Source of the DNA: Chloroflexota bacterium
GTDB taxonomy: Bacteria; Chloroflexota; UBA11872; VXOZ01
Assembly (NCBI GenBank): GCA_964291655.2
Contig: OZ219802.1
Span: 1,344,001-1,408,000 of the forward strand
DNA length: 64,000 nucleotides
Direction of reading: 5' to 3'
Under the pieces are notes generated by a model. The model saw nothing but the letters and a program-made list of their open reading frames with translations. It did no database searches and was not told where the DNA came from. Of the stretch, positions 95 through 34,652 are shown in pieces. A program made the translations under genes and the position numbers. Numbering within the stretch: position 1 is the stretch's first letter; the number at the start of each line of letters is the position of its first letter.

Positions 95-349
95 TGTAAA
101 TGTCAGGTAATTCGTTGACAGATTTGGCAGAAGAAACATGGGAGCAGAACTCTGTGCTTGCCTACATACATGTCATTCCAAACGGAGCGTAGCGGAGTGA
201 GGAATCTAGAGTGCTGAGGCCGTGAAAGTGTGTTGAGCAGGGATCCTAGATTCCGCGAACCCTGTTCGACGCTACGCTCGGAATGACAAGGCCTTGTAGC
301 GCTTTCTACGGGAAAGCAAATTCTGTCAACGAATTACTCAACACTTACA
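95..349 (+). mobile_element. TGT...ACA MITE copy 1 (255 bp), 5-bp TSD GGAAT
   Basis: Ends TGTAAATGTCAGGTAATTCGTTGACAGA and TCTGTCAACGAATTACTCAACACTTACA. GGAAT at 90-94 and 350-354. Removing the element restores GGATTCCCGCCTGCGCGGGAATGAC. Confidence 0.9.
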
Positions 350-443
350 GGAATGACGGACCACGAGGGGGCTTATCCCCTTCCGGAAAGTACAATCTAG
401 TCGCCAATTCAGCCTAAACTCCAATTCAACCAAGGTATCGAAC

Positions 444-1775
444 ATGCCGGTCACCCGCATCGTCACCGATCTTGCAGAAGCACAAGAGACCGTGCTCAAG
501 CGCACGCCGCTGGGCAGCGAAGAGGTACCCGCGCCGGTGGCGGCGCGCATTCGCAAGGTATTCGGCGCCGACCTTTCACCCGGTGAAGTGGTCGACCGCA
601 TTCTGGCGGACGTCCAGGCCGAAGGCGACACTGCCCTGGCACGTTACCTGCAGCACTTCGATGGCGTCGTGCCGGAGCCGTTGGAAGTAACGCCGGAGGA
701 GATTGCCGCGGCGCGCGAGCACGTGGACGACGCGCTCTGGGAAGTACTGGAGCTCGCTGCAGCTCGGATTGCTGCGTACCATGAACGCCAGCGGCGCAAT
801 TCCTGGATGGACTTTGCTACAGGCCTCGGCGAGATGGTGCGGCCGCTGCAACGGGTAGGCCTCTATTCGCCGGGCACGGAACGCGTCTATCCGTCGTCGG
901 TGCTGATGTCGGCGGTACCGGCGCGTGTGGCGGGCGTGGAAGAGATCATCCTCGCCACCCCGTGCCGTCCCGATGGCAGCGTGCATCCGCTCAAGGTCGC
1001 CGCCGCCGCGGTAGCAGGCGTACACAGAATCTTCAAGATCAGCGGCGCGCAGGCCGTTGCGGCCCTGGCATTCGGCACCGCACAGGTGCCCAAGGTGGAC
1101 AAAATCCTCGGCCCCGGCAATATCTTTGTAATTCTGGCGAAGCAAAGAGTGTACGGCCAAGTAGGCATCGACCAACTCCCCGGGCCGACCGAAACAGTCA
1201 TCGTGGCCGATGCCGCGGCTGATCCGGCAGAGGCGGCGGCTGATCTGCTCGCTCAAGCGGAGCATGATTTTCTGGCAACACCGCTGCTCATCACGGATTC
1301 CGCCGCTCTCGCCGCGCGCGTTGAACAAGAGCTGGCTGCGCAACTGGCGAACCTGCCGCGCCAGGCAGAAGCCGCCTATTCGCTGCTGCACAACGGCGGC
1401 ATCGTGGTAGTGGACGATCTGGAGACGGCCGTTGACGCCGCCAGCGCCTTCGCGCCGGAGCATCTGTGCCTGCTCACTCAGGAGCCGTGGCAATGGGTCG
1501 GGAAGATCCGCAATGCCGGCGGCATATTCGTCGGCAGCGCCTCGCCGGAGGTGTTGGGCGATTACATTGCCGGTCCGAGCCACATCATGCCGGTAGGCGG
1601 CACGGCTCGCTTCTCTTCCCCGCTAACCGTCCAGGAATTCTATAAGAGCACCAGCATCGTCGCGCTCGATCCAGAGACCGCTGCTGCCATTGCCGAGCCC
1701 GCCGCCGCGTTGGCCGAGGCGGAAGGCTTCTTCGCACATGCCCAAGCCGCGCGCAGACGGGCGCAACAAACTTAA
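444..1775 (+). CDS. hisD: Histidinol dehydrogenase
   Basis: Motifs YPSSVLM..VPARVAGV, GAQAVAALAFGT, KILGPGN.FV..AK, GIDQLPGPTE, DLLAQAEHD, APEHL, GDY.AGPSH.MP..GTARFSSPL. Confidence 0.97.
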   Translation: MPVTRIVTDLAEAQETVLKRTPLGSEEVPAPVAARIRKVFGADLSPGEVVDRILADVQAEGDTALARYLQHFDGVVPEPLEVTPEEIAAAREHVDDALWEVLELAAARIAAYHERQRRNSWMDFATGLGEMVRPLQRVGLYSPGTERVYPSSVLMSAVPARVAGVEEIILATPCRPDGSVHPLKVAAAAVAGVHRIFKISGAQAVAALAFGTAQVPKVDKILGPGNIFVILAKQRVYGQVGIDQLPGPTETVIVADAAADPAEAAADLLAQAEHDFLATPLLITDSAALAARVEQELAAQLANLPRQAEAAYSLLHNGGIVVVDDLETAVDAASAFAPEHLCLLTQEPWQWVGKIRNAGGIFVGSASPEVLGDYIAGPSHIMPVGGTARFSSPLTVQEFYKSTSIVALDPETAAAIAEPAAALAEAEGFFAHAQAARRRAQQT

Positions 1776-1990
1776 GCGCAGTTTGCGTTTTCCCGTCACG
1801 CTTTTGCGTGGATTCCCTGTCTTCCACACTGGCAGGGGGAAGTCCGTTGTATTAGACTCTCGTTCCCGTGCCCTGGGTTTGGCAATCAGGGCCAATGCAA
1901 GGAGCGTGTGGCAACTTGTGACTACACCTATGAAGTACGTATCATAGGAACAAGCAAAAGATCCGCCAGGCAAGAGAAACGAGGCATACC

Positions 1991-2458
1991 ATGCGCGTGA
2001 TCACCCTCAAGCCGCAGCCACTCACCCCGGAAGGCTTTGCGCCCTTCGGAAATATTCTCACTCTGGATCGCTCCGAGATTGTTTGCACAGATGGTGTGCT
2101 CACGGCGCGCATCACCCATGCGCCATTGCGCGACCTCAGTGCAGAGCAACCGCATTTCCTGAACCGCCACATGGAAGAGACCCAGGTCTTCGTGCCATTG
2201 GGCGGTAAGGACGGCCTCTTCTTCGTAGGGCCGCCGAGTGAGACGCCGGAATCCTTCGATCCCGATAGGGTGGCGCTCTTTCACTTTCCCGGTAGCTGCG
2301 CGATCCGCATGCACGTGGGCACGTGGCACGTGGCCCCCTTTGCAGTGTCAGATCCCATCGACTACATCAATATTCAAGGCGACAAGGTACGTCACTACAC
2401 TGACGGATACGACTTCAAGGAGCGCGACAACCTGGTATTTCAGTTCGACTTGAGTTAA
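1991..2458 (+). CDS. Ureidoglycolate lyase-like cupin protein
   Basis: N-terminal PLTPEGFAPFG, then RH...TQ.FVP and GTWH..P motifs typical of the family; GAGG SD. Confidence 0.75.
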   Translation: MRVITLKPQPLTPEGFAPFGNILTLDRSEIVCTDGVLTARITHAPLRDLSAEQPHFLNRHMEETQVFVPLGGKDGLFFVGPPSETPESFDPDRVALFHFPGSCAIRMHVGTWHVAPFAVSDPIDYINIQGDKVRHYTDGYDFKERDNLVFQFDLS

Positions 2459-2495
2459 AGGGGGACGCAGGCGGACGCCAGCGGGAACAGTCATC

Positions 2496-2760
2496 TGTCA
2501 TTCCCGGGCAAGCGGGAATCCATCTTTATCGTGTAGTAGGCCGGAGCAGTGCTGAGATGCGAGCCTCGGTTACGCTACTGAGGAATTGAGATGCCGGTTT
2601 CGGCAGTCCCGCGCCATCGCACGGACACTGTCGTCAGTTGGAAGTTCGCAGAGCCATGCAATTGTCGCCCCGAACAGAGTGCGGGGTCTAAGACGCCGCC
2701 GGTAGGACAGCGGTGGCGGTAAGGGAGAACTCTAGATTCCTCGCTCCGCTCGGCATGACT
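2496..2760. repeat. Palindromic REP/dRS3-like repeats
   Basis: CTGTCATTCCCGGGCAAGCGGGAATCC near 2496 and CTAGATTCCTCGCTCCGCTCGGCATGAC near 2732. Confidence 0.75.
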
Positions 2761-2862
2761 CGTGAAAAGTGTCGCAGGGTTCGACATGCTGCCGCAACGC
2801 TCCCACACCTAGCTGACTGCTGGGTACTCGTACTGAGAAGAATCGCCGTAGAAAGTGCCCCA

Positions 2863-3456
2863 ATGACACGCGCGGGACAGCACACACGACAGACGCAAGA
2901 GACCAACGTGGCCGTTTCGATTTCGTTGGACGGCGCCGGCACTGCGAGTATTGCTACCGGAATCGGTATGCTCGACCACATGCTCAACCAGCTTAGCACC
3001 CACGGACTCTTCGATTTAGAAGTGCACGCCAGCGGGGACTTGGAGGTAGATTCGCATCATACCGTCGAGGACGTGGCAATTTGCCTGGGTCGCGCGCTCG
3101 ACGCGGCCTTGGGCGACAAGACCGGCATCACCCGCATGGGCTGGGCCTGCGTGCCCATGGATGAGGCTTTGGCCCTGGTGTCCGTGGACCTGAGCGGGCG
3201 CGGAGCGGCGTCCGTGGATGTGCCTTTCACTGGCTATAAGCTCGGCACTTTGCAGAGCGAGATGATCGGCCACTTTCTCGATACCTTCGCGGTGCAGGGT
3301 CAGTTCACGCTGCACGCGCGCCTGCTGGCCGGCGCAATCGATCATCACAAGGCCGAGGCAGTCTTCAAAGCCCTCGCCCGCGCGCTGTCACAGGCCGTCC
3401 AACCAGACCCCCGCCGCCAACACTCCGTGCCCAGCAGCAAGGGATCATTGGAATAG
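2863..3456 (+). CDS. hisB: Imidazoleglycerol-phosphate dehydratase
   Basis: R.T.ET.V, TGIGMLDHML, GDLEVDSHHTVEDV, PMDEAL, HHKAEAVFKA; ATG start chosen at 2863 because the upstream ORF extension is repeat DNA. Confidence 0.96.
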   Translation: MTRAGQHTRQTQETNVAVSISLDGAGTASIATGIGMLDHMLNQLSTHGLFDLEVHASGDLEVDSHHTVEDVAICLGRALDAALGDKTGITRMGWACVPMDEALALVSVDLSGRGAASVDVPFTGYKLGTLQSEMIGHFLDTFAVQGQFTLHARLLAGAIDHHKAEAVFKALARALSQAVQPDPRRQHSVPSSKGSLE

Positions 3457-3461
3457 ATGCG

Positions 3462-4682
3462 GTGGATACGCGCTTTCCCGAGCCGCTACCAAATACGCTC
3501 TTGCCACGTGAGTCAGTGGCGAAGCGCTGGGCGCGGCGCGGGCTGCTGCGAACGCTGGCATTCTTTCGCCCATATCGCTTTCCTGCTACTCACGCCGACC
3601 GCATCCTGGTAATTCGCCCCGACCATATTGGCGACGTACTGCTGATCACGCCGGCGTTGCGGCTGCTGCGCCAGGCGTTTCCTGAGACTGAGATTACAGC
3701 GCTGGTGGGTCCGTGGTCGGAAGCGGTGCTGGCACGAAACCCGCAGATCGACCGGCTTGAGGTCTGCCGCTATCCCGGCTTTGAGCGCAGCCAACCGCAG
3801 CAGGGCCTGCACGCCTACACGCAACTCCGGCGTGAAGCCGCGCGCCTGCGTGGAGAGGAATACCAGCTTGCCCTCAACCTGCGAGCGGACTTCTGGTGGG
3901 GCGCGGCGCTGGCCGCGTTTGCCGGTATTCCCTACGTGTGGGGATTCAGCGAGCCGGAGTGCGCGCCGTTTCTCACTCACGCGTTGCCGGTACAGCGTGA
4001 CGAGCATCAGGCAGAATCCAACCTGCGCTTGGTACGCGCCGCTGCGACCGTTGGCATTCCGGTAGAAGATGCCGGCACACACCTGCAGTTCGACGGCACG
4101 CACGACGACGCACAGACGGCTGAGGAGCTTCTGCGCACGGCTAACGTGACTTCAGACGCCACACTTGTCGCCATTCATCCGGGTTCCGGCGCGCCAGTAA
4201 AGCATTGGTCCGCCGCCGGCTGGCACGCTGTAGGCAACGAATTAGCGGAAGACGACCGCGTACACTTTCTCGTCTCTTCCGGTCCCGCTGAGCGAGACCT
4301 TGCCCGGGAAGTCGCCGCCGGTCTGCCGCAAGGTCGCACCGTGTTGGTCCAAGAGACCTCACTCGGCGTTTTGGCGGCGCTCTATGCCCGCTGCTCATTG
4401 GTGATGGGGCCCGATTCCGGCCCCTTGCACCTCGCGGTTGCGGTGGGCGCGCCCAGTGTGACCCTCTACGGTGCGAGCGATCCCGTGCGGTTCGGACCGT
4501 GGGGGCCTGCTGAACGGCACCACACGGTAGCTTCCACCATCCCTTGTCGACACTGCGGATACCTAGCGTTGCCCGCTGCAGCCCTATCGCAGCACCCGTG
4601 CATGCAATTCATTGAACCGGCAGCGGTAACGTCAGTGGCGCGAGAGCTGCTGGAGCAAACCGTAACGAGCACTCACCCATGA
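3462..4682 (+). CDS. Glycosyltransferase family 9 (heptosyltransferase-like)
   Basis: RILVIRPDHIGDVLLITP, IHPGSG...KHW, DSGPLHLAVAVGAP. Confidence 0.9.
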   Translation: MDTRFPEPLPNTLLPRESVAKRWARRGLLRTLAFFRPYRFPATHADRILVIRPDHIGDVLLITPALRLLRQAFPETEITALVGPWSEAVLARNPQIDRLEVCRYPGFERSQPQQGLHAYTQLRREAARLRGEEYQLALNLRADFWWGAALAAFAGIPYVWGFSEPECAPFLTHALPVQRDEHQAESNLRLVRAAATVGIPVEDAGTHLQFDGTHDDAQTAEELLRTANVTSDATLVAIHPGSGAPVKHWSAAGWHAVGNELAEDDRVHFLVSSGPAERDLAREVAAGLPQGRTVLVQETSLGVLAALYARCSLVMGPDSGPLHLAVAVGAPSVTLYGASDPVRFGPWGPAERHHTVASTIPCRHCGYLALPAAALSQHPCMQFIEPAAVTSVARELLEQTVTSTHP

Positions 4683-5860
4683 GTTCTTCACTTAAACACC
4701 TTGCACGCCGCGCCGCTGGGGTGGTGTTATGGCTCTATTGCGCTGTTCTGGCTATGATCGCCCGGCTCCGCCACGGGCAGGATCCGTATCGACCGGATAG
4801 CGTTGAGCGCATTCTCATCATCCGGCTCGATCTCATCGGCGACCTCCTATTCTCGGTACCTGCTATTCGCAACACTCGTCAGCGGTTTCCGCACGCGAGA
4901 CTTGACGTGCTCGTGGCCCCCAATACGGCTCCGCTCCTCGCCGAGTGCCCCTACGTCAACCATGTCTACACTCTGGACGCCCACACGCTAACCCACCTTC
5001 CCGGCATTCTCTCTCTCAGCCAGTGGCGACAGGCATGGCGGCTCATCCGCACCTTGCGCGCTCAGCGGTATGAACTCTGCTTAAGCCTCTACGGCGTGCC
5101 TGCGGCGACCGTTTGTCTCTTGACCGGCGCGCCGCAGCGAGCGGGCTTCGCCGACGAAGCGCCGCCGGGCAGCTTTACTCTTCGTGCAACGGGTAGTCGC
5201 CTGCCGCAAGACCGTCACGAGGTGCATTGTTCCCTGGTGGTGGCGCAAGCGGCCGGCGCCGCAACCACACCCGACCGCATGGAAGCCTGGGTGAGCGCGG
5301 CCGACCGCGCCTGGGCTGAAGAGAACTTAGCTACCGACGGAGACGCGCTCTGGGTTGCCTGCGGACACGGCGCGCGGAACGGCTATGCTAAGATCTGGCC
5401 GCGGCGCCACTGGATCGGCCTCATAGATCAACTGCAGCAAGCGGGGTATCGTGCCGTCCTCGTGGGTGGGCCTGAGGAAGCCGAGGAGGCGGCGGCAATT
5501 GCGCTTGACTGTGAAAGCGCGCCCCTGGTGCTGACCGGCAAGACGACGCTGGGTCAACTGGCTGCAGTGCTCGCGCAGAGCACGCTTATGGTAGGCAGCG
5601 ACAGCGGACCCCTGCACCTGGCTGTGGCGCTGGGCACTCGCGTCGTCGGCCTGTACGGTGCCACGAGTCCGGTGCGCTACGGACCTTTCGGTCAGCCCGA
5701 CGCCGTGCGGCAACACCCGATATTTTGCAGTCCCTGCTACCGGCCTGAAACCGGCCAACCTGCTACCTGCCGCTACGGCACGGTGGAGTGCATGGAAGAA
5801 CTGGAACCGGAGCAGGTGCTGGCAGGCGTGCCCGCTGCAAAGGGTGATGCAGGTCAGTAG
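4679..5860 (+). CDS. Glycosyltransferase family 9 (heptosyltransferase-like)
   Basis: ILIIRLDLIGDLL, KIWP, GKTTLGQL, DSGPLHLAVALG; ATGA overlap with the upstream gene. Confidence 0.9.
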   Translation: MSSSLKHLARRAAGVVLWLYCAVLAMIARLRHGQDPYRPDSVERILIIRLDLIGDLLFSVPAIRNTRQRFPHARLDVLVAPNTAPLLAECPYVNHVYTLDAHTLTHLPGILSLSQWRQAWRLIRTLRAQRYELCLSLYGVPAATVCLLTGAPQRAGFADEAPPGSFTLRATGSRLPQDRHEVHCSLVVAQAAGAATTPDRMEAWVSAADRAWAEENLATDGDALWVACGHGARNGYAKIWPRRHWIGLIDQLQQAGYRAVLVGGPEEAEEAAAIALDCESAPLVLTGKTTLGQLAAVLAQSTLMVGSDSGPLHLAVALGTRVVGLYGATSPVRYGPFGQPDAVRQHPIFCSPCYRPETGQPATCRYGTVECMEELEPEQVLAGVPAAKGDAGQ

Positions 5861-5979
5861 AATAGGATCAGGGCGCGGTGGTGAAGTACTGGCGCCGACA
5901 CTCAATCCGCAGGACATACCTGCAAAAGTACGACAGCCAAACCGATGGAGTGCGGGTCGTTGTCTAAGTATTACAAGAC

Positions 5980-6354
<375 letters not shown>

Positions 6355-6440
6355 TTGGGCAGGAAGCAGGCGGGATTGCGGTAACTACAGACGAAAAACT
6401 GGGCAAAGGAAAGACTTGAACCAAAGGAGAAAAGAAAACT

Positions 6441-7466
6441 ATGCGCGCAGCAGTCATGGGCATGCGGCACGGACACATCAGCGAGTTTGTACGGGCCGTT
6501 GAGGAAAACGAGGCGGTAAGCCTTGTCGGTATCGCGGAAGACGAGCCGACGGTTCGTGCCAGAATAGAGTCCGAGCATAGCGTGCCGGTGTACGCGGACT
6601 TTGATGAATTGCTCGACAAAGAGCAGCCGCAAGTTGTCGGTGTCGCCAGGACGAACGCCACGAAATTTCTGGCGCTCACCGCCTGCCTGGAACGCGGCAT
6701 CAACGTGATTGCCGATAAGCCGCTGCTCACGGAGATGGGACAACTTGAGCAGGTGCAGGCTGCATATGCTCTCGGCAAGGCGCGCCTAGGCATGATGCTA
6801 AGCCAGCGCTTCTCCGCGCCCCACCGGGCCCTTAAGGCGCAGGTGGAAGCCGGAGACTTTGGCGAGATCGTGCACATGTACGGCTTCGGCCCCCACAAAC
6901 TACGTCCCCATACGCGCAATCCGTGGGAACTCGACGCGGCGCAGAACGGCGGGGTGCTCGTCGACCTCGGCGTGCACTATTTCGACTCGCTGCGGTGGTT
7001 CTCCGGCCAGGAGCCGGTGCGCGTGGCTGCGGCGCAAGGCAATACGCGCTTTCCGGAGCTGCCCCAACTCTACGACCACGCCCACGCGCTCATGGAATTC
7101 GACGGCGGCATGAAAGGCATCGTGGTCGCCGACTGGCTCACGCCCGACGCTGCGCCTTATCACGGCGACTACCGTCTCTACGTCACCGGCACGCGCGGCA
7201 CGGCAGAGATCGCGACCTCCGGCACACTGGAGCCCTCCGGCCCCAACAAACAGGGCGGCGTGCGTGTGGTGCTGAACGATAAGGAACCCTTCGACCTGGA
7301 CGTCCCACCGCTGCAACACACGCCTACCAGCGACTTTCTGGAGGCGCTTGTAAACGACCGCGAACCCTACGGCAGCGCGGAAGAGGTGCTCCGCACGATG
7401 GAGGTGACGCTGCACGCGAAAGCCGCAGCGGAGAGCGGCGATTGGGTAAATATACCAGCCAAGTAA
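6441..7466 (+). CDS. Gfo/Idh/MocA family oxidoreductase
   Basis: N-terminal Rossmann start, NVIADKPL, GGVLVDLGVHYFD, GTRGT; AGGAG SD. Confidence 0.9.
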   Translation: MRAAVMGMRHGHISEFVRAVEENEAVSLVGIAEDEPTVRARIESEHSVPVYADFDELLDKEQPQVVGVARTNATKFLALTACLERGINVIADKPLLTEMGQLEQVQAAYALGKARLGMMLSQRFSAPHRALKAQVEAGDFGEIVHMYGFGPHKLRPHTRNPWELDAAQNGGVLVDLGVHYFDSLRWFSGQEPVRVAAAQGNTRFPELPQLYDHAHALMEFDGGMKGIVVADWLTPDAAPYHGDYRLYVTGTRGTAEIATSGTLEPSGPNKQGGVRVVLNDKEPFDLDVPPLQHTPTSDFLEALVNDREPYGSAEEVLRTMEVTLHAKAAAESGDWVNIPAK

Positions 7467-7546
7467 AATCTGAGCTGCAAAAGACCACGCATTTCTTGCT
7501 TAGTCATCAAGCGCTGCCGGGACATGCAGACCTCGATTGTCATTCC

Positions 7547-7787
7547 TGTAAGTGTCAGGTAATTCGTTGACAGACTTGAGAACAAAAGCAGCTGAACGCA
7601 GTACTCTACATGAACAGTACACATGTCATTCCGAACGGAGCGCAGCGAAGAGAGGAATCTAAGATGTTGAGCCTATTGGGCGACACGTTGCATGGCCCTA
7701 GATTCCTCGCTCCGCTCGGAATGACATGATCTGTCAACACTGCCAATTTGGGAGAGAATTCTGTCAACGAATTACTCAACACTTACA
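7547..7787 (+). mobile_element. TGT...ACA MITE copy 2 (241 bp), TSD ATTCC
   Basis: Same 28-bp ends. ATTCC at 7542-7546 and 7788-7792. Empty site GTCATTCCGAGCGAAGCGAGGAATCTAG. Confidence 0.92.
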
Positions 7788-8027
7788 ATTCCGAGCGAAG
7801 CGAGGAATCTAGAGTGTGTGCAGTTCATTCTCCACCATGTGGGAAGAAGATCCGGTGAGGGTGAGCGTGCAGGTTTTCGTGGCTGCGTGCTACTTTGCGT
7901 GGCACCGAACAATGGCAACGGATGAAGATGAATTCCCGTTTTCACGGGAATGACGGACTATTCGCTGTTACACTCAGAAGTCAGTGGCAAGCTAACACAT
8001 CCTTTATCTGACAATAGGAGAGTTGCC

Positions 8028-11913: not shown

Positions 11914-11917
11914 TGCC

Positions 11918-22699: not shown

Positions 22700-22774
22700 T
22701 GGTGGCGGGGGTGAGACTCGAACTCACAACCTAGGGCTTATGAGTCCCCCGCTCTGCCTTTGAGCTACCCCGCC
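22700..22774 (-). tRNA. tRNA-Met (CAT), elongator type
   Basis: GGCGGGGTAGCTCAAAGGCAGAGC...CTCATAA...GTTCGAGTC...CCCCGCCACCA; G1-C72 paired, CCA encoded. Confidence 0.92.
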
Positions 22775-23093: not shown

Positions 23094-23166
23094 TGGGCCC
23101 ACCTGGATTCGAACCAGGGACCTTCTCCTTATGAGGGAGCAGCTCTAACCACTGAGCTATGGGCCC
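23094..23166 (-). tRNA. tRNA-Ile2 (CAT, lysidine type), probable
   Basis: GGGCCCATAGCTCAGTGGTTAGAGC...CTCATAA...GGTTCGAATCC...GGGCCCA; acceptor and D-arm resemble ileX-type tRNAs; no encoded CCA. Confidence 0.85.
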
Positions 23167-25431: not shown

Positions 25432-25755
25432 AGTCTGCGTGCTCCCGTAAGTGTTATCGCGCTACTCGCCTCTCCCGGAGCCCTATTGGCCTTCGGGAAT
25501 GCGGGCAAGCTATCGAGCCAGATAATGCAGGTCAAACGCCGAGTGCAGTATAGCAAGAGATCCGCGCATGCGCAGCCAACCATGCAGATGCAGACGCTTC
25601 ATGCAGGCCGGTTGGTGAGTGCGTACCCGTCGAAGCATCGACGTAGACAATAGGTAACAAAAGAGAGTGGATACTCACACAAATTCACAATCTGGCAACA
25701 ATCCCAAGATAGTTTTAGAGTGAGCACATAGATACTTTACAATCGTAGGGGAGGA

Positions 25756-26493
25756 ATGCGCTTGGATTCACAAACGATGATGAAATTTTCACGTCACTTC
25801 CTCCGACGGAGAGCGCTCCTCATACCGTTGGCGGCGGTGCTGGCAGCATGTAGCGGCCTGGGACGGAATAATACAGAAGAGCGAGCGACCCTATCGCAAG
25901 GGGCCGATGACGCCCCAACACCTGCCGCATCGGCACAAGCGCGGCCGTCTGCTGAGCAGTCGACGGCTGTCACACAGTCCGTCGCTGCAACAAAATTGCC
26001 TGCCACACCGGCATGTGAAGATGACGACGATCCCACGCCACCCCAAACTGCAGGCCCGTTCCACACGCCCAACACGCCGCTACGGACCTCGCTGCTGGAA
26101 TCCGGCTTCGCCGGTACCCGGCTGCTGCTCTCAGGCCAGGTGCTCTCCACGCAGTGCACGCCGCTTGCGGGCGCGCTGCTCGACTTCTGGCACACCAACG
26201 ACGCGGGTGAATACGACAACGAAGGGTACACTTTTCGCGGCCACCAGTTTGCCGACGACGCGGGACGCTTTACGTTGGAAACCATCGTCCCCGGCGTCTA
26301 TCCCGGTCGCACGCGCCACATTCACGTGCGCGTGCAAGCCCCGAACCAGCCTATCCTTACCACCCAGCTCTACTTTCCGGGGGAATCCGGCAACCAGGGC
26401 GACGGCATCTTCGATCCCGCCCTGCTCGTGAAGCTGGCAGATGCGGCGAACGGCAAAGAGGCCCAGTTCACCTTCGTGCTGGACGTGCCGTAA
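25756..26493 (+). CDS. Secreted intradiol ring-cleavage dioxygenase-like protein
   Basis: RRR/LAAC signal; GPFH, GALLDFWH....GEY, RG.QF.D..G.F...TI.PG.Y..RTRHIH, TTQLYF. Confidence 0.85.
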   Translation: MRLDSQTMMKFSRHFLRRRALLIPLAAVLAACSGLGRNNTEERATLSQGADDAPTPAASAQARPSAEQSTAVTQSVAATKLPATPACEDDDDPTPPQTAGPFHTPNTPLRTSLLESGFAGTRLLLSGQVLSTQCTPLAGALLDFWHTNDAGEYDNEGYTFRGHQFADDAGRFTLETIVPGVYPGRTRHIHVRVQAPNQPILTTQLYFPGESGNQGDGIFDPALLVKLADAANGKEAQFTFVLDVP

Positions 26494-26776
26494 ACACGCG
26501 GGTGCAATGACTATTGTATGGTCGATCCGCAAGCGAGCTGGAGTGTCCCCCACCGCTGGCCTATAACGGTTGTTCCTCTGTCGACACCGCATTGCGCACA
26601 TAAACGCCCCCGTTTGAGCAACCTAGCGGACGCGCAAGAGCACAATGCCGGCGTCTGCGTACAGGCTTGGGTGTGGCTCCCACGGCGGCAAGGTTTACCC
26701 GGTATGCGGTGCTATACTGTAATGAAGTGAGCCAGCAGCAAGTGTTCCAGTCAACGGGGGACAAAGGAGTCGCCGG

Positions 26777-27379
26777 ATGGTCGGACGAATAGTCACGGGT
26801 CTCGTAGTCATCTTGGCGGCGATGGCGCTGGTCGCGTGCGATACGGCATCAACGGCTACGCAATCGGCAGCATCGCAGTCGCCGCTCGCCTCTCTGCCAA
26901 GCCTGGATGAGATCTCCCGGGAGGCAGAGCCCGGCCTTTACACCCAGGCCTTCGTGGCGGAGGCGATACGGCGCTACGACGCCGACGGGCGCGAAGCCAC
27001 GCTCGCGCACTTCAACAATCCGGCAAGCGTGGACGGCGAGTGGTACATGTTCATCATCGGCGAAGACGGTGAAGTGCTGGCGCATTCATCTATTCCGGAG
27101 AACGTCGGGCTCTTTGTAAGGAAGCCACTGGGGGTCGACGCCAACGGCTACGACTTCGGCACAGACATGCTCGCAGCCACCGAACAGGGAAGCTGGGTGA
27201 GCTATGTCTATGAAAATCCGGCCAGAGACAACTTGCTCGAGACTAAGCACGCGTGGGTAGTCAAACATGACGGCTTGATCTTCGCCTCCGGCTGGTATCA
27301 AGTCGACCGCTACGACGCCCCGCCGCAGCAGCGACCGCCGACCGATCCGAATAAGGTGATTGCGCAATCCGGGCATTGA
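26777..27379 (+). CDS. Single Cache-domain lipoprotein
   Basis: Lipobox LVAC; DGEWYMFII, G.WVSY...NP, KH.WV..HDGLIF.SGWY. Confidence 0.8.
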   Translation: MVGRIVTGLVVILAAMALVACDTASTATQSAASQSPLASLPSLDEISREAEPGLYTQAFVAEAIRRYDADGREATLAHFNNPASVDGEWYMFIIGEDGEVLAHSSIPENVGLFVRKPLGVDANGYDFGTDMLAATEQGSWVSYVYENPARDNLLETKHAWVVKHDGLIFASGWYQVDRYDAPPQQRPPTDPNKVIAQSGH

Positions 27380-27655
27380 CGTGCTTGCATGTCCATTGGC
27401 GGACGCCATTCACTCGGATAGATCCCAGCCATTGATTGACGGCCAAGTAGGCGACTCAGTGAATCACAAAGAGTTGGATCCCCGCCTGGCGACGACGCAT
27501 ACGCTGAGCCGAAAGAGCGGTCACTCGCGGACTGAGATACACCGCAGTGCGTAGTGAACGACGCAAGGCCATCCCCAATGACGCTTCCCCAGAGGTGATC
27601 GCGGAGACAATTTCCGCCTCATGCGATTGAACGAGGCGCTGCTAGGAGCAAGGAC

Positions 27656-28126
27656 ATGCCCGGCAAGACATCGAAGAAGCCAGGCAAGACCGCCAAGAAG
27701 CCGTTACCCAGGTCTGCTGACGGCAAGGTAGTCCTGCTTTCCGGCGGCAATCCGCAGATCGCGAAGGCCGATGGCGATGCGCCCGTGCAGAAGTACATTG
27801 CGTATATGCCGGGTTGGAAGAGCGACCTGGGTCGCCGCCTCGACTCGGTCATCGAGCGCGAGGTGCCGAATGTGCAGAAGTGCGTGCGCTGGAATTCGCC
27901 CTTCTACGGCGTTGAGGGCATGGGCTGGTTCCTGAATGTCCACGTCTTCACCCACTACGTCAAGGTGACCTTTCTCAAAGGATCACTGATGGAATCTCAA
28001 CCGCCGGGCTCCGGCAAAGACCCGGACGCGCGCTGGATCGACATCTACGAGGACGCATTCGACGAGGAACAGTTTGCGGAGTGGGTGCGACAGTCAGCGG
28101 CCCTGCCCGGCTGGGACCTGCGGTGA
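27656..28126 (+). CDS. DUF1801 (YdhG-like) protein
   Basis: LLSGGNPQIAKADGDAPV, VRWNSPFYG, F..YVKVTF..G. Confidence 0.8.
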   Translation: MPGKTSKKPGKTAKKPLPRSADGKVVLLSGGNPQIAKADGDAPVQKYIAYMPGWKSDLGRRLDSVIEREVPNVQKCVRWNSPFYGVEGMGWFLNVHVFTHYVKVTFLKGSLMESQPPGSGKDPDARWIDIYEDAFDEEQFAEWVRQSAALPGWDLR

Positions 28127-28312
28127 CTCTTAGCGGGTTCTGTGGTTTTTCGTTGCCGGAAAAGTGCCATCTGAGTGAAGAAACACTACGGGTTTTGGCG
28201 CACAGAGTCGCACGGTTCACTTTCCGATCTCCTTGCTGTGTTGGCAGAACGCCCGGTGGATAAATGAAGTACGTCGATGAGCAGCAACGCACATTACCGG
28301 CAGCGCCGGAAT

Positions 28313-28554
28313 TATAAATGTCAGGTAATTCGTTGACAGATTTGAGAACAAAAGCAACTGAACGCAGTACTCTACATGAACAGTACACATGTCATTCCGA
28401 ACGGAGCGCAGCGAAGAGAGGAATCTAAGATGTTGAGCCTACTGGGCGACACGTTGCATGGGCCCTAGATTCCTCGCTCCGCTCGGAATGACATGATCTG
28501 TCAACACTGCCAATTTGGAAGAGTATTCTGTCAACGATTTACTCAACACTTACA
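28313..28554 (+). mobile_element. TGT...ACA MITE copy 3 (242 bp), TSD GGAAT
   Basis: Nearly identical to copy 2; left end reads TAT. GGAAT at 28308-28312 and 28555-28559. Confidence 0.9.
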
Positions 28555-28633
28555 GGAATGACGGATTGTGCAATCGTCTCCTTGAAGGCGACTAGCCAGA
28601 ACTCTAGACCTGCTGGAAAGGCCAATACGAGCA

Positions 28634-30169
28634 GTGGAGTCACAATCAACCACGACATTTCAACCGTTTCGCGACCAGCTTGAAACGGCGTTCGATCAGT
28701 TTGCGCAGCGGCCGGCGCTGACGTATCAGGACGCGACGTGGACTTATGCCGAGCTGGACGCGCGCACCCGCGCGGCGGCGAGGTACCTGCAAAAGCAGGG
28801 CCTGCGGTCGGGCGAGCGGGTGATCCTCTACACGGCGGACAAGCGCGCGCTGCTGCTGGCGCACCTGGGCGCGATCCGGGCGGGCGGCGTCTCGCTGCCG
28901 CTGAATTCAAAGTTTACGCCGCGCGAGATGGAATACTACGCCCGGGACAGCGGTGCGGTGCTCGCGGTGGGCGGCAACGCCGAATTGCCGGTGCTGCAGG
29001 CGCTGGTGGACGACGCGGAGACCCCGCTCAAAGGCGTGCTACATGCCGATGAATTCCTGGCGTTAGAGCCGCAAGCCACGGTCTCTTTGCCGGATTCCAC
29101 CGCAGCGGACTGGGCGCTGCTGCTCTACTCGTCCGGCACTACCGGCCAGCCCAAGGGCGTGGTGCACACGCACGCCAATCTCGGCGCGGCGGTGCGCTCG
29201 CTGGCTGACTGCTGGGCGTTTACGCCGGACGACGTGCTCGTGAATGTGCTGCCGTTCTTTCATATCCATGGCCTCTCGTTTGCCAGCCACGTGAACTTCC
29301 TCACCGGCGCCCATATGCTGATGGCCGACCAGTTTCACCCGGTGCGCACGTTGGACTTCATCGACCGCGCCACGGTCTTCATGGCCATTCCGCCCATGTA
29401 CTACCAGTTCTTGAACCGGCCGGAGTTTCGCTCCCACGCGGAAAACTGGTCGCACGTGCGGCTGTTTACGTGCGGTTCCGCACCAATTCGTCCCGAAGTG
29501 CTACCGGAACTGGAAGGTATTTTGAAGAGTCCGCTCATTAACCGGTATGGGATGACCGAGAGCCACGTGATTGCCAGCCTGCCCATCGACAAGCCCAGCG
29601 TGCAGGGCTCGGTGGGACTGCCGCTGGACGGCGTCGAAATGACCATGGTCGAGGATGGCTCCACCACCAAGGACGGCCACGCCGTAGGCGAGGTGCACGT
29701 GCGCGGCCCGGTGATCTTCGACCACTATCTCAACCGGCCGGAAGCCACCGCTGAGGCCTTTGCCCACGAGGGATTTTTTGCCACCGGCGACCTAGGTTTT
29801 TTGAATCACCAAGGGTACTTGACGCTCATCGGGAGAAAGGTCGACCTCATCATCACCAAGGGCTTCAATGTCTACCCGCCCATGGTCGAGCGCGTGCTCA
29901 ACGATTGCCCCGGCGTGAAGGAGTCCGCCGTGTTCGGCCTGCCTGACGACCTGCGCGGGGAAAAAGTGGTGGCCGTGGTGGTGAAAGACCCCGAGGCAGC
30001 GCAAGAGGCAACGCCCCGCAACATCCGCGACTTCTGCCGCGAACGCAGCGTGGACTACCAGGTGCCGTCCGACGTCTACTTCGCGGAAGAACTCCCCCGC
30101 AACGCCATGGGCAAGGTGCTGAAACGCGAACTGCGCGACGGCTTGCTGTCGGAGGGTGGCAAGCGGTGA
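28634..30169 (+). CDS. AMP-dependent acyl-CoA synthetase (malonyl-CoA synthetase-like)
   Basis: YSSGTTGQPKG, LPFFHIHGL, RYGMTE, F.TGDLG, PRNAMGKVLK. Confidence 0.92.
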   Translation: MESQSTTTFQPFRDQLETAFDQFAQRPALTYQDATWTYAELDARTRAAARYLQKQGLRSGERVILYTADKRALLLAHLGAIRAGGVSLPLNSKFTPREMEYYARDSGAVLAVGGNAELPVLQALVDDAETPLKGVLHADEFLALEPQATVSLPDSTAADWALLLYSSGTTGQPKGVVHTHANLGAAVRSLADCWAFTPDDVLVNVLPFFHIHGLSFASHVNFLTGAHMLMADQFHPVRTLDFIDRATVFMAIPPMYYQFLNRPEFRSHAENWSHVRLFTCGSAPIRPEVLPELEGILKSPLINRYGMTESHVIASLPIDKPSVQGSVGLPLDGVEMTMVEDGSTTKDGHAVGEVHVRGPVIFDHYLNRPEATAEAFAHEGFFATGDLGFLNHQGYLTLIGRKVDLIITKGFNVYPPMVERVLNDCPGVKESAVFGLPDDLRGEKVVAVVVKDPEAAQEATPRNIRDFCRERSVDYQVPSDVYFAEELPRNAMGKVLKRELRDGLLSEGGKR

Positions 30170-30260
30170 TGGCTTGTTGGGGAATCCGCGGACTCGATAC
30201 TGAGATGTATTGAAAGGCGAGGTATATAGGGGAGTCCTGTGGAAACCAACTGCCTGGGCT

Positions 30261-30474
30261 GTCATACCTTCGACTGCGCTCAAGACAGGTCTGAGGAGCC
30301 TTGCGACAAGCCTGTCTTGAGCCTGCCGAATGGCTCAGTCTAAACTCCGCGACGAAGAATATAGAATGCATGCGCTTTAGATTCCGCGAACCCTGTTCGA
30401 CGCTACGCTCGGAATGACATTCCAATGGAACATGGAATCGATAGCTATTCGTAGCGCGGGGGCTTGTCCCCCGC
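30261..30474. repeat. Nested mosaic of palindromic repeats
   Basis: GTCAT..CTGAGGAGC...GCGACGAAGAAT interrupted by CCTTCGACTGCGCTCAAGACAGG and its inverse; GGAATGAC at 30411; GTAG repeat at 30451. Confidence 0.7.
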
Positions 30475-30618
30475 CTCTTGATTCAGACGTGAGGCCAGGT
30501 CGCCAAACGTCCCTCCCTCTACCCCCTATCGCCAATGCAGGCTACACTAGAAAGGTGGCCCGACAACGCAGACGCGGCCCACATTCCAAGAAAGATGGAT
30601 TCCCGCTTTCGCCGGATT

Positions 30619-30860
30619 TGTAGGTGTTGAGTAATTCGTTGACAGAATTCGCTTTACATTCTGAGGAGTTGACGGTGCATGTCATTCCGAGCGGAGCGAG
30701 GAATCTAGGGTCCCTGCTCAACGCACTTTAACGGCTTCAGCACACTAGATTCCTCTCTTCGCTGCGCTTCGTTCGGAATGACATGTGTACATGTCATGTC
30801 TAACTCTGCGAAAGGTTGCTTTTGTTCTCAAATCTGTCAAAGAATTACCTGACATTTACA
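30619..30860 (-). mobile_element. TGT...ACA MITE copy 4 (242 bp), TSD GGATT/GGAAT
   Basis: Reverse orientation; empty site GGATTCCCGCTTTCGCCGGAATGACGG. Confidence 0.9.
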
Positions 30861-30935
30861 GGAATGACGGGTTGAGATTGCCACCCATACGAAACTAAAG
30901 ACCAACTGGAACAACCGGCATAACCAACGAAGATC

Positions 30936-33311
30936 ATGAACCAAAAGACCCTAGAACTCCTAGAATTTCCCAAAATCCGCGCTCTGCTTGAAGAGCAGGC
31001 GCACTTTTCCGCCAGCAAGGCGTTGGCGGAGGAGCTCACACCGGCCACGGAGCCGGAGGCCGTAGAGCGCTTGCAGACGGAGACCGCCGAAGCGCGGGAG
31101 CTCTTGCGCCTGCATCCGAATTTCACCATCGGGCCGGCCCACGACGTACGCAGCCTGGTGGACTATGCCGCCCGCGGCGGTGTGCTGGACGCGTCCGCGT
31201 TGCTGGCGGTATCTGACACCATGCGCAGCGGGCGCATGACGCGGGAGATGCTCGTGCGCCGCACCGAGGCATTTCCGCTGCTCAGCCAACTGGCGCGGGA
31301 GATCATGAAGTGCGACCCTTTGCAGGGCGCGATCGAGCAGGCGATTGGGCCGGACGCCGACGTGCTGGATAGCGCCAGCCCGCTGCTGCGCTCGCTGCGC
31401 CTGGACGTGCGCGCGATCCACAACCAACTGCTCGACCGCATGCAGGCGCTCGTGCGGACACCGGAATATCTCGTACATTTACAGGACCCCATCGTCACGC
31501 TGCGGTCGGACCGCTACGTCCTGCCGGTAAAAGCCGAGTTTCGCGGGCGTGTGAAAGGCATCGTCCACGACGAGTCCGCCAGCGGCGCGACGGTCTTCGT
31601 AGAACCGCTGGACGTGGTGGAGATCAACAACCGCTGGCGCAGCGCCCAGCGCGAGGAACAGCGGGAAGTAGACCGCATTTTGCGCGCTCTCTCGACTGAG
31701 GTAGGCGTCTATCAGCAGGAAATCACGGACAACGTGGGGACTTTGGCCGCCATTGACATCATTCTGGCAAAAGCGCGCTACGCCGAGACAATCAAGGCCG
31801 AGCAGCCGACCGTCGTATCCGGCTACCGTTTCTCCTTTCGTCAGGCCAAGCACCCGCTGCTCGCGGGCGAGGTGGTGCCCATAGATGTCTATTTGGGACA
31901 AGACCCCCACCGGGCGCGTGCCCAGCCATTCTATGTGCTCGTCATTACCGGCCCGAACACCGGCGGCAAGACCGTAGCGCTCAAGACCGTCGGGTTGCTG
32001 ACGCTCATGGGGCAGTGCGGTCTGCACTTGCCGGTGGCGCTTGGCTCACGGCTGGCGGTGTTTCGACAGGTGCACGCCGACATTGGCGACGAGCAGAGCA
32101 TCGAGCAGAGCCTCTCCACCTTTTCGTCACATCTCTCTAAGATCATCCCCATTCTCGATGAAGCCGACGAGCGTTCGCTCGTGCTCTTCGACGAGCTTGG
32201 CGCGGGCACCGATCCCCAGGAAGGATCGGCATTGGCGCAAGCAATCCTCCTCTTTCTGCGCAATAAGCGCGTGCCGACGGTGGCTACCAGCCACTACTCG
32301 GCGGTAAAAGCGCTGGCGCACGTGGAGGAGTTTATGCAGAACGCCAGCGTGGAGTTCGACGTGGAACGGCTCGCGCCCACGTACGTGCTGTCCATCGGCA
32401 TGCCCGGCACGAGCCATGCACTGCAGATTGCCGGACGTCTCGGCCTGAATCCCGCAATCGCCGCGGAAGCACAAGTGCGGTTTAGTCCGACGGAGCAGGC
32501 GGTAGATGCGTTGATGGTCTCCCTGCGCGACGAAACGGAGCAACTCAAGGCCGAGCGCGAGCACCTCGCGCAGGACCGCACGGGTCTGGAGGCCCAGCGG
32601 GACGCGCTGGCGGCACGCGTGCGGGAGATGGAGGAGACAGTAACGGAGCAAAAGACAGCAGCATGGGACGAGGCAACCCAGGAAGCCGGGGAACTATTGG
32701 AGCAGATTCAGGCGCTGGCGCGCCAGGCGAAAGTCTTCGCCACGCCGCTGGATACCAACCGCAAGCTCCTGGAGCACTCCGCCAGGCAAGCCCGCGAACG
32801 GCAGCGGGAAATGCGGTCCCGGGCGCGGGCAATGCGTGAAGCGCCCACGCCGCAGTCCCTTGCCGTAGGGGACACGGTGCGCGTGCGCGGGTGGGAGATG
32901 CCGGGGCAGGTGCTCGCTTCCCCGGACACGCGCGACCTGGTGGCGGTGCAGGTCGGCCAGATCAAGACCCGTGTGCCTCTGGAAGAGATTACCCAGGTAG
33001 AAACGCAGGAGCCCGCGCCTGAAAAGGAAGCGAGACAGCGTGATATCGCGCCGGCCGCACCGGTTGTGCCGGTAGAAATAGACATCCGGGGCAATCGGGC
33101 CGAGGAGAGCATCGGGACGGTTGACCGCTATCTCGATCAGGCGCTCCACAGCGGCCTGAAGAGCGTTCGCATCATCCACGGCAAGGGCACCGGCGCGCTC
33201 CGCGCCGCTATTCACGACATGCTGCGCGGCCATCCGCTCGTGCACCGCTTCCGCACCGCCCCGGCGCGGGAAGGCGGGGACGGAGCGACGGTAGTGGAGT
33301 TAGCGCAGTAG
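30936..33311 (+). CDS. mutS2: Endonuclease MutS2
   Basis: LEFPKI, GIVHDESASGAT, TGPNTGGKT, DIGDEQSIEQSLSTFSSH, DELGAGTDP.EG, C-terminal Smr IIHGKGTG.LR. Confidence 0.96.
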   Translation: MNQKTLELLEFPKIRALLEEQAHFSASKALAEELTPATEPEAVERLQTETAEARELLRLHPNFTIGPAHDVRSLVDYAARGGVLDASALLAVSDTMRSGRMTREMLVRRTEAFPLLSQLAREIMKCDPLQGAIEQAIGPDADVLDSASPLLRSLRLDVRAIHNQLLDRMQALVRTPEYLVHLQDPIVTLRSDRYVLPVKAEFRGRVKGIVHDESASGATVFVEPLDVVEINNRWRSAQREEQREVDRILRALSTEVGVYQQEITDNVGTLAAIDIILAKARYAETIKAEQPTVVSGYRFSFRQAKHPLLAGEVVPIDVYLGQDPHRARAQPFYVLVITGPNTGGKTVALKTVGLLTLMGQCGLHLPVALGSRLAVFRQVHADIGDEQSIEQSLSTFSSHLSKIIPILDEADERSLVLFDELGAGTDPQEGSALAQAILLFLRNKRVPTVATSHYSAVKALAHVEEFMQNASVEFDVERLAPTYVLSIGMPGTSHALQIAGRLGLNPAIAAEAQVRFSPTEQAVDALMVSLRDETEQLKAEREHLAQDRTGLEAQRDALAARVREMEETVTEQKTAAWDEATQEAGELLEQIQALARQAKVFATPLDTNRKLLEHSARQARERQREMRSRARAMREAPTPQSLAVGDTVRVRGWEMPGQVLASPDTRDLVAVQVGQIKTRVPLEEITQVETQEPAPEKEARQRDIAPAAPVVPVEIDIRGNRAEESIGTVDRYLDQALHSGLKSVRIIHGKGTGALRAAIHDMLRGHPLVHRFRTAPAREGGDGATVVELAQ

Positions 33312-33368
33312 GAATTGCCTTGGTGAGAACGATGTTCGCTGTGTTCTGCCAATGTGCGTGAAAGTGAC

Positions 33369-33487
33369 AGACCGTTCATCCTTCGACAAGCTCAGGACGA
33401 ACGGTCTTTGGTGTTCTCGACGAACTGTCTTTAGTTTTCTTGACGAATGGTCTTTTGTTTTCTCGACGAGTGGTTTTTGGTGTTCTT
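33369..33487. repeat. Palindrome followed by a 4 x 23-bp tandem repeat
   Basis: AGACCGTTCATCCTTCGACAAGCTCAGGACGAACGGTCT; units at 33396, 33419, 33442 and 33465. Confidence 0.85.
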
Positions 33488-33590
33488 GAGGGAATTTTGT
33501 GGCAGTAACGGGCCGTGGCGATGCCGCCGCGCCAAACTGTCGTGGAGCAGGCGGCGAATGTGGGAGATATAGCCAGGTTTCCGTGGTGGA

Positions 33591-33773
33591 TTACTGCACG
33601 AAGATCTCGAAATTCACGTCCTCATCACGGTTAAGCACGCGCTGTGTCATGCGGCGCAGATAGGTGACGCTATCGTGACCGAGCAACGTACCGATGACGG
33701 AACCGAGCAGCAAGCCGCAAAACGCTCCGAGCGCTACACCCCAAACGAATTGGCCTTCTTCCGCAAGTTTCAT
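33591..33773 (-). CDS. Small single-TM hypothetical protein (60 aa)
   Basis: MKLAEEGQFVWGVALGAFCGLLLGSVIG...; follows rsfS on the same strand. Confidence 0.6.
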   Translation of the reverse strand: MKLAEEGQFVWGVALGAFCGLLLGSVIGTLLGHDSVTYLRRMTQRVLNRDEDVNFEIFVQ

Positions 33774-33859
33774 ACGTATCACAGTTCCAACCCCCTTCGT
33801 TCCGGTGAGGGCAGGCATCGCGCGCATGCGGCTTACCTAATTCGCTGCCGCACCCAGGG

Positions 33860-34204
33860 TCACTGCACACGCAGTATCGTCGTGGCCTGCGACCACAGCC
33901 GCTCGAGATGGTAGTACTCGCGCATATCGCTCGAAAAGACGTGTACCATCACGTCGCCGTAGTCCAATACCACCCAGCCACCTTCACCTTTGCCTTCGCT
34001 GCGCAGCGGGGATTCGCCCCGCGCGTCCAAGTCTTGTTCAATATGCTCCACTATTGCCCGCAATTGCGGTGTGGAATCCGCCGAACACAGTACAAAGAAA
34101 TCGGCCACAACAGTCTGACGCCGAATATCGAGCAGTGCCATGTCGGCACCGCCATGTTCGGCCATTATATCGACTGCGAGCTTTGCTTTCTCTAAGCCAT
34201 CCAT
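33860..34204 (-). CDS. rsfS: Ribosome silencing factor RsfS
   Basis: LDIR....ADFFVLCS.....Q, EG....WVVLDYGDVMVHVF....R.YY.LERLW. Confidence 0.94.
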   Translation of the reverse strand: MDGLEKAKLAVDIMAEHGGADMALLDIRRQTVVADFFVLCSADSTPQLRAIVEHIEQDLDARGESPLRSEGKGEGGWVVLDYGDVMVHVFSSDMREYYHLERLWSQATTILRVQ

Positions 34205-34384
34205 CGCCATAATTATAGCACAGACTCCTCGTGACGGCTCCTATCAATTCGTATTTTCCATGGAAAACACACCGCCGCTAAACGTAAAAAGCAGCAATTT
34301 TCGAACAAGGCATTCCGCCCGTCTCCGCACACATCAACAGGCTCGCATGCGCCCTTTCGACTGTGAGAAGTCCTCTGTCAATCC

Positions 34385-34652
34385 TGTAAGTGTTGAGTAA
34401 TTCGTTGACAGAATTCTCTCCCAAATTGGCAGTGTTGACAGATCATGTCATTCCGAGCGGAGCGTCGAACGATGTTCGCGGAATCTAGGGTCCCTGCAAC
34501 GTGTCGCCCAAAAGGCTAAACATCTTAGATTCCGCGCTCCGAGCGACTCTTCGCTGCGCTTCGTTCGGAATGACATGTGTACTAGTCATGTCTAACACTG
34601 CGAAAGGTTGCTTTTGTTCTCAAATCTGTCAACGAATTACCTGACACTTACA
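34385..34652 (-). mobile_element. TGT...ACA MITE copy 5 (268 bp), TSD AATCC/ATTCC
   Basis: Same ends; flanks at 34380-34384 and 34653-34657; inserted in one arm of a GTCATTCCGAGC...AGAATGAC palindrome pair. Confidence 0.9.

Follow-up and report, generated by a model that had tools for sequence, protein, structure and literature searches.

The Correia elements of Neisseria are miniature inverted-repeat transposable elements (MITEs) derived from bacterial insertion sequences (ISs), and target repeats in the IS481 family of ISs range from 4 to 15 bp in length. ISLxc2 of Leifsonia xyli, an IS481-family element of 1,105 bp, encodes a 332-aa transposase, carries TGT ends, duplicates its target NCTAGN, and has a stop codon at the element edge (PMC2516522). 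Insertion into repetitive extragenic palindromes (REPs) has been described for IS1397, ISKpn1, and ISPsy8 of the IS3 family, for IS621, ISPpu9, ISPpu10, and ISPa11 of the IS110 family, and for others of the IS4, IS256, and IS5 families (Tobes & Pareja 2006, PMC1525189); the survey names five IS families in all, with IS481 absent from its text. Here, we analyzed a 64,000-nucleotide stretch (the window; G000:C2:1344001-1408000) of the 3.47-Mb, two-contig genome of a Chloroflexota bacterium (G000; 59% G+C), which contains five short elements with TGT...ACA ends. These elements are, very probably, MITEs derived from an IS481-like IS of 1,046–1,061 bp that inserts almost exclusively at GGAATGAC at the foot of intergenic palindromes.

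Terminal repeats and the parent insertion sequence

The original prediction for this window had proposed five elements of 241–268 bp with 28-bp terminal inverted repeats (TIRs). Both 28-mers were found at exactly the ten predicted ends, with 0–3 mismatches (Table 1), and 100 dinucleotide-preserving shuffles of the window yielded 0 matches. Every copy combines the two end types, TGTAA[A/G]TGTCAGGTAATTCGTTGACAGA and TGTAAGTGTTGAGTAATTCGTTGACAGA, which differ consistently at positions 10–12 (CAG at one and TGA at the other), as had been noted before. A window-wide search with the 16-nt core of the repeat, allowing ≤2 mismatches, found no further ends.

The comparison set comprised 16 congeneric Chloroflexota metagenome-assembled genomes (MAGs) and 24 genomes from other families of the class. 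In two congeners, G006 and G008, some ends lie ~1,020–1,060 bp apart, and a 1,061-bp element (L005, 475–1535) bounded by the same 28-bp terminal repeats contains a single 333-aa sense open reading frame (ORF); only one long sense ORF fits the element, and no TnsC/TniQ-type partner genes are present. A scan of one genome per species identified 181 stretches encoding transposase relatives, and the best 80 of these (hereafter, the 80 IS copies) all measure 1,046–1,061 bp and all have TGT...ACA tips with ends of both types (80/80). Their transposases, of 323–333 aa, show 76–100% protein identity and were found in MAG records with Chloroflexota or Dehalococcoidia bacterium in their titles. In most of these copies the left inverted repeat (IRL), upstream of the gene, is of the ...TGTCAGG/TGTTAGG... 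type, and the right inverted repeat (IRR), downstream of the gene, is of the ...TTGAC/CTGAC... type, the complement of which (AATTAG) provides a TAG stop codon. The predicted "left" end (TGTAAGTGTCAGG...) corresponds to IRL and the predicted "right" end (TGTAAGTGTTGAG...) to IRR (TGTAAGTGTTGAC...), which holds the TAG stop of the transposase; positions 10–12 therefore differ between the two MITE ends as IRL differs from IRR in the parent IS.

The 333-aa ORF matched the Pfam domains rve_3 (8e-21) and rve (9e-11), plus rve_2. Among NCBIfam models, IS481 was best (E = 8e-61, 206 bits), leading the next-best model, IS3 (81.7 bits), by 124 bits, followed by IS21 (57.1 bits) and ISNCY_2 (38.7 bits). 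The motifs HVD, TDNG, and NGKVER at residues 165, 232, and 273 look like the DDE triad, and these data support a DDE (rve) transposase as the probable mobilizing enzyme. An unframeshifted rve-type DDE ORF of ~330 aa in an element within the ~1–1.3 kb range, TGT inverted ends, and a short target repeat of fixed length are all features of the IS481 family. Because NF033577, the NCBIfam equivalog model for IS481, has a curated cut-off of 224 bits and the score is 206 bits, the transposase is called here IS481-like, or nearest to IS481, rather than a certified member of the family.

A DDE enzyme had been anticipated in the original prediction, and this part is borne out by the rve domains; the type envisaged (TnsB/MuA or IS1202) is not, given a single 333-aa ORF that scores 206 bits on IS481 as against 38.7 bits on ISNCY_2. 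TGT...ACA ends with 5-bp duplications do occur in the Tn7/Mu-like and IS1202-type groups, and a second TCTGTCAAC motif, 37 bp into the IRR arm of MITEs, may point to multiple binding sites; both features would suit the ends of a Tn7/Mu-like or IS1202-type (ISNCY) transposon served by a TnsB/MuA-type enzyme and targeting partners. We give this explanation hardly any weight, as the only element found with these ends is 1.05–1.06 kb long with one 333-aa ORF, and the ISNCY_2 score compares with a cut-off of 250 bits for that model (NF033594), which would cover IS1202 proper. The long copy enclosing a DDE transposase that the prediction called for was found in congeners, without TnsC/TniQ-like partners, but not in G000: no long autonomous copy emerged there when unpaired and three-mismatch ends were paired up to ~8 kb and four longer spans were inspected by ORF and Pfam. 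These four spans hold housekeeping genes (aconitase, citrate synthase, penicillin-binding protein, MutL, and similar) or an unrelated IS1182-type transposase. The latter (DDE_Tnp_1_6, DUF772, DDE_Tnp_1) is located at G000:C2:943012-944634 (L003 4013–5635, minus strand) inside a cluster of MITE ends, with a complete MITE beside it at L003 6162–6406.

Target duplication and target site

An exact 5-bp direct repeat flanks 67 of the 80 IS copies, and two more have a repeat with one mismatch; no exact repeat of 3, 4, or 6–9 bp was found among the 80. GGAAT/ATTCC is the pentamer in 51/67 exact cases. The remaining 16 show other pentamers, each altered identically at the two flanks (GGAAC in four, ATTCT in three, AGAAT and ATCCC in two each, and CTTCT, ATAAT, ATTCA, CCAAC, and ATCAT in one each), and GAC/GTC adjoins the repeat at one of its two ends in 67/67. 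In the window, the GGAAT/ATTCC flanks could be read at all five copies as predicted, three exact and two with one mismatch.

Orthologous sites of three window copies (copies 2, 3, and 4) were compared in relatives. The site of copy 3 in G008 is empty, reading ...GCCGGAAT followed directly by GACGGattgtgc... with a single GGAAT (L114 ~1495–1510), as is that of copy 4 in G002, where GGATTCCCGCgaaaGCGGGAAT is followed by GACGG, again with a single GGAAT (GGATTCCCGCgaaaGCGGGAATGACGG); empty sites of this kind were the test that the original prediction had set for itself. Because the variant pentamers co-vary on both sides and two empty sites hold a single GGAAT, the comparison supports the pentamer as a true target-site duplication (TSD).

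If the pentamer instead belonged to the element or served as a recombination core, and integration at GGAAT took place by conservative site-specific recombination as with IS110 elements or integrases, the near-invariance of the pentamer would be readily explained, and palindromic targets are also those of the IS110-family REP-targeting elements (PMC1525189). The 16 co-varying pentamers, the exactly one GGAAT in each empty site, and the enzyme itself, which is of the rve DDE type and not a DEDD or tyrosine/serine recombinase, make such recombination very improbable.

Beyond the pentamer, the flanks of the IS and MITE copies agree with the predicted site-specific insertion at GGAATGAC in intergenic palindromes. 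This motif occurs 479 times in G000, compared with ~92 occurrences expected from base composition; 257 of the 479 have ATTCC ≤30 nt upstream, indicating a hairpin foot, and 47 directly follow an element end and are thus occupied. Excision of each window copy leaves ...GGAATGAC or GTCATTCC... and, on reading of the loci, restores palindromes of two repeat families, as had been claimed: ATTCC[C/G]G-N-C[C/G]GGAATGAC and GTCATTCCGA[A/G]CG...GGAATCTAG. Genome-wide, the first family (ATTCC[C/G]G-N4-8-C[C/G]GGAATGAC) has 136 members in G000 and the second (GTCATTCCGA[A/G]CG...) has 139, often paired with GGAATCTAG (130); ATTCCC-N8-GGGAAT, a form that would fit the likeness to Neisseria dRS3 suggested in the original prediction, occurs 62 times. 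Insertions are almost always intergenic because the motif is the foot of these two REP-like intergenic palindrome families. With insertions in repeated extragenic palindromes, and unoccupied copies both elsewhere and at orthologous sites, the element behaves as a REP-targeting one, and the data identify its target as GGAAT^GAC, located at the foot of REP-like palindromes and used in either orientation. A likeness between target and TIR (GTCATTCC and GTAATTCG, 6/8 positions) would arise by chance somewhere in the TIR with a probability of ~0.2 by our own estimate and was dropped as a clue to how the target is read.

The transposase would bind both ends and make staggered cuts, 5 bp apart, around the GGAAT of the 8-bp target motif GGAAT^GAC; joining of the TGT...ACA ends at these cuts, followed by repair, would then duplicate GGAAT. 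By analogy with IS3 relatives, the chemistry is probably copy-out/paste-in.

The MITE family in G000

At ≤2 mismatches to the 16-nt core, G000 contains 122 ends, which form 48 inward-facing pairs (200–411 bp) and 26 unpaired ends; a three-mismatch search, which gave 151 ends, was set aside in favor of this threshold, with ~25 chance matches expected at three mismatches by our own arithmetic. The 5-bp flanking repeat is exact in 29 of the 48 pairs, has one mismatch in six, and has ≥2 mismatches in 13. ATTCC (17), GGAAT (7), and ATTCT (2) account for most exact repeats, with ATTAC, TGGAC, and GCAAT seen once each; GAC is found on one side of the repeat in 27/29, and the other two are degenerate here (GGC and GTT). 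The GAC-adjacent end is IRL in 15 and IRR in 12, and the 80 IS copies likewise include both orientations (45 vs. 24), as predicted for insertion relative to the target.

These elements have no ORF and share only 31–38 bp with each end of the parent IS, in line with the non-autonomous nature proposed for them; their short length, lack of coding capacity, TIRs like those of the autonomous element, and 5-bp TSD like that of the parent are the marks of MITEs. The interior, unlike the IS, consists of a REP pair that carries two GGAATGAC sites, and hairpin potential is strong (z = -9.07). Compared with the 80 IS loci, the interior had long matches in flanks only, where ISs lie beside MITEs or REPs, and none inside the IS. 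A free-standing REP pair of the same type as the MITE core is present at window positions 34653–34740 (ATTCCGAGCG...AATCTAG ... CTAGATTC...AGAATGAC), which suggests that the MITE core was captured from a REP unit like this one.

A weak Y1_Tnp (PF01797) match of 30.2 bits, the only one in the genome, was found in a 276-aa open frame at G000:C2:2523481-2523714 (L118); the protein is a possible REP-associated tyrosine transposase (RAYT) behind the target palindromes. Together with the REP pair inside the MITE, this match could be taken to mean that the elements themselves are repeats of the REP/BIME (bacterial interspersed mosaic element) type spread by a Y1/RAYT enzyme, their inverted ends being incidental. 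The ends are those of a DDE IS, and the copies carry 5-bp duplications; Y1/HUH transposition is not known to yield TIRs or duplications. We therefore regard this as a most unlikely origin for the MITEs, and Y1/RAYT activity may explain the target palindromes instead.

Since each interior holds two GGAATGAC sites, MITEs probably insert into one another. Same-strand ends exactly 70 bp apart occur on G000:C2 at 808622/808692, 1292872/1292942, 1687448/1687518, and 1994680/1994750, and this spacing recurs in G006 and in G008, with three in a row in G008:C19. The 70 bp correspond to the stretch between the tip and the internal GGAATGAC of the MITE, made up of IRR (28), 37 bp, and GGAAT; the composite at 808622–808947, flanked as a whole by GGAAT...GGAATGAC, fits nesting. 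MITEs would thus land in the GGAATGAC site inside an already resident MITE, after which the duplicated interiors may recombine, with loss of one and retention of tandem "arm" units of 70 bp.

Distribution of ends and transposase

Ends were found in 16/16 congeners; the 24 genomes from other families gave one single-mismatch match only, and a reversed-pattern control gave 0. At E ≤1e-60, six of the 16 congeners have the cognate transposase (G006, 11 copies; G001, 15; G003, 5; G015 and G008, 1 each; G010, 1 broken copy), and the IS is intact in five and broken in the sixth. A survey of 98 genomes within the class of G000 (E ≤1e-100) found the cognate gene in five, all of the same genus; because class-wide matches are confined to one genus, the 76–80% identical relatives in Dehalococcoidia-titled records presumably lie outside this class. 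The 11 copies in G006 share 99–100% protein identity and have differing flanks, which argues for recent IS activity in this congener.

The original prediction placed the mobilizing transposase elsewhere in the same genome, and this was not supported. G000 has 29 matches to the cognate transposase, all ≤35% identical: 28 are intact open frames at 29–32% that fall into three subgroups, and the one remaining match, at 35%, is a short, broken fragment with two in-frame stops. Representatives of two subgroups scored 290–293 bits on the NCBIfam IS481 model, indicating bona fide IS481-family transposases. All three subgroups have ends of TGTATAGACC..., unlike TGTAAGTGTCAGG..., and sit in another palindromic repeat; cross-mobilization of the MITEs by these resident elements was rejected because the ends differ. 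The resident elements are ~1.25–1.29 kb long (e.g., G000:C2 2405416-2409198, L010, and 1032827-1036609, L013) and appear to be inserted in the palindromic repeat CCCTCTCC...GGAGAGGG; palindrome targeting may be common to the IS481-type elements of G000.

The MITEs of G000 look orphaned and aged, because the genome lacks a close transposase homologue and nearest-neighbor identity among MITEs is only 91.8% at the median (maximum 97.2%; 46 of 48 with a neighbor). They are probably now immobile, the cognate transposase being missing. That they are still mobile, through the 28 resident transposases or through a cognate copy that is unassembled or on a plasmid, is improbable, though less so than the other alternatives considered here. 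The many ends in G000, the absence of copy 3 from the closest relative, G008, and the incompleteness of the two-contig assembly (97.55% complete) would all agree with continued mobility; the different ends and palindrome of the resident elements and the lack of any identical MITE pair, set against the 99–100% identity of the G006 IS copies, speak for orphaned elements.

Several observations weigh against derivation of the window copies from an IS481-like IS by target-specific insertion. Besides a score below the IS481 cut-off, these include 0 copies of the cognate transposase in G000 at E ≤1e-60; the absence of copy 3 from G008, a 95%-identical relative, though no cognate transposase was found in G000; the orthologous site of copy 2 in G008, which is rearranged, with a 70-bp remnant of the IRR arm, and was not counted as empty; and the lack of a clean TSD in 13/80 IS copies and 13/48 MITE pairs, some of whose junctions pair GTCATTCC at one flank with GGAATGAC at the opposite flank or contain a homopolymer run. 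We tentatively attribute the unclean TSDs to nested insertions, errors in assembly, or copies recombining with each other. At two G006 junctions without a clean TSD (L027 and L028), a homopolymer (C9/G9) separates flank and IS tip; such runs may be long-read assembly artefacts or untemplated additions. Copy 3 postdates the divergence of G000 and G008, unless it was precisely excised from the latter. Two explanations are available: transposition went on beyond this divergence before the gene was lost, or the unassembled ~2.5% of G000 contains the gene.

Setting of the window copies

The five copies and their flanks are listed in Table 1. No stop-to-stop frame of ≥80 codons crosses any copy, in agreement with the prediction that no gene is interrupted; short frames overlap the copies by 5–126 nt. 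Neighboring genes have ordinary metabolic or repair functions (hisD, a GFO/IDH/MocA oxidoreductase, an MR/MLE enzyme, an AMP-binding enzyme, MutS2, and a cytidylyltransferase). Copy 5 appears to be present in G008 too, because the G008 match covers 113 bp of the copy before the contig ends.

Table 1. Positions, ends, and surroundings of the five MITE copies in the window (TSD, target-site duplication; IRL and IRR, left and right inverted repeats).
Feature	Position	Strand	Length (bp)	Ends	Flanking pentamers	Setting
MITE copy 1	95..349	+	255	IRL left, IRR right	TSD GGAAT 90-94 and GGAAT 350-354, then GAC 355-357	within palindrome, GGATTCCCGCctgcGCGGGAAT followed by GAC; upstream of hisD (444-1775)
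MITE copy 2	7547..7787	+	241	IRL left, IRR right	TSD ATTCC 7542-7546 and ATTCC 7788-7792; GTC before	target GTCATTCC followed by GAGCGAAGCGAGGAATCTAG; between oxidoreductase gene (end 7466) and MR/MLE-family gene (start 7950)
MITE copy 3	28313..28554	+	242	IRL left, first base mutated (TATAAATG...)	TSD GGAAT 28308-28312 and GGAAT 28555-28559, then GAC	upstream of AMP-binding enzyme gene (28634-30169)
MITE copy 4	30619..30860	-	242	IRR left, IRL right	GGATT 30614-30618 and GGAAT 30861-30865 (one mismatch), then GAC	between AMP-binding enzyme gene and mutS2 (30936-33311)
MITE copy 5	34385..34652	-	268	IRR left, IRL right	AATCC 34380-34384 and ATTCC 34653-34657 (one mismatch)	left foot of free-standing REP pair reaching ~34740

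An Rfam scan of the window found no family matching the MITEs; its sole matches were two tRNA genes on the minus strand, at 22703–22774 and 23094–23166 (RF00005, 66 and 70 bits), which are unrelated to the MITEs. The minus strand at 35655–38093 encodes an 812-aa protein that consists nearly entirely of leucine-rich repeats (LRR_8, LRR_4, LRR_14), unusual for such a free-living bacterium.

Comparison with known systems

Our literature search found no IS481-type REP-targeting element or MITE and no paper on IS481 in Chloroflexota; ISfinder was outside this search, and an entry there is possible. We see an evenly balanced case for the broader proposal that an IS481-like clade in uncultured Chloroflexota recognizes the hairpin foot by a strict 8-bp motif (GGAAT^GAC) that is kept at 76–80% protein identity and across class labels; that its MITE captured a REP pair as its own landing pads, self-nesting into 70-bp arrays; and that, together with the resident elements (CCCTCTCC/GGAGAGGG), palindrome targeting is a general, so far unreported trait of an IS481 clade. 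If true, this would also provide a compact one-protein system for sequence-specific DDE insertion. The element described here adds an IS481-like member to the ISs living in repetitive extragenic palindromes, for which the survey names IS3, IS110, IS4, IS256, and IS5 only (PMC1525189), and it clearly illustrates, in nature, how a small DDE transposase acting as a single protein can have an 8-bp target. The family accounts for a common intergenic repeat and for frequent contig breaks in Chloroflexota MAGs (several G008 contigs end inside copies), and it shows that a MITE can persist at ~50–60 copies in a genome that has apparently lost its transposase. The MITE and its IS form an otherwise ordinary pair whose target preference is unusually clean, and no general principle of transposition is changed.

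Like Correia elements and other IS-derived MITEs, the elements described here are short (~150–270 bp), lack an ORF, have TIRs as in an IS and a fixed TSD, and occur in many intergenic copies with a strong hairpin; unlike Correia-type MITEs, they have an IS481-like parent, a captured REP-pair core, and no cognate transposase found in their host genome, G000. The parent IS resembles the IS481 family (IS481 of Bordetella and ISLxc2) in its size of ~1.05 kb, its one unframeshifted rve/DDE transposase of ~330 aa, and its TGT...ACA ends; ISLxc2 as described also shares the fixed-length short duplication of a sequence-specific target and the transposase stop at the very end of the element (PMC2516522). 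It differs from ISLxc2 in its target, GGAAT^GAC within REP-like palindromes with a 5-bp duplication, as opposed to the 6-bp NCTAGN (PMC2516522), and from the IS481 family at large in its score below the equivalog cut-off, its uncultured Chloroflexota host, and its large derived MITE family. As for the REP-targeting ISs covered by the survey (PMC1525189), insertion is confined to intergenic repetitive palindromes, a "safe-harbour" strategy, and the IS3 members among them likewise use an rve DDE enzyme; in contrast to those ISs, the element described here recognizes an 8-bp motif at the hairpin foot that is common to two palindrome families and is accompanied by an abundant MITE that carries its own targets.

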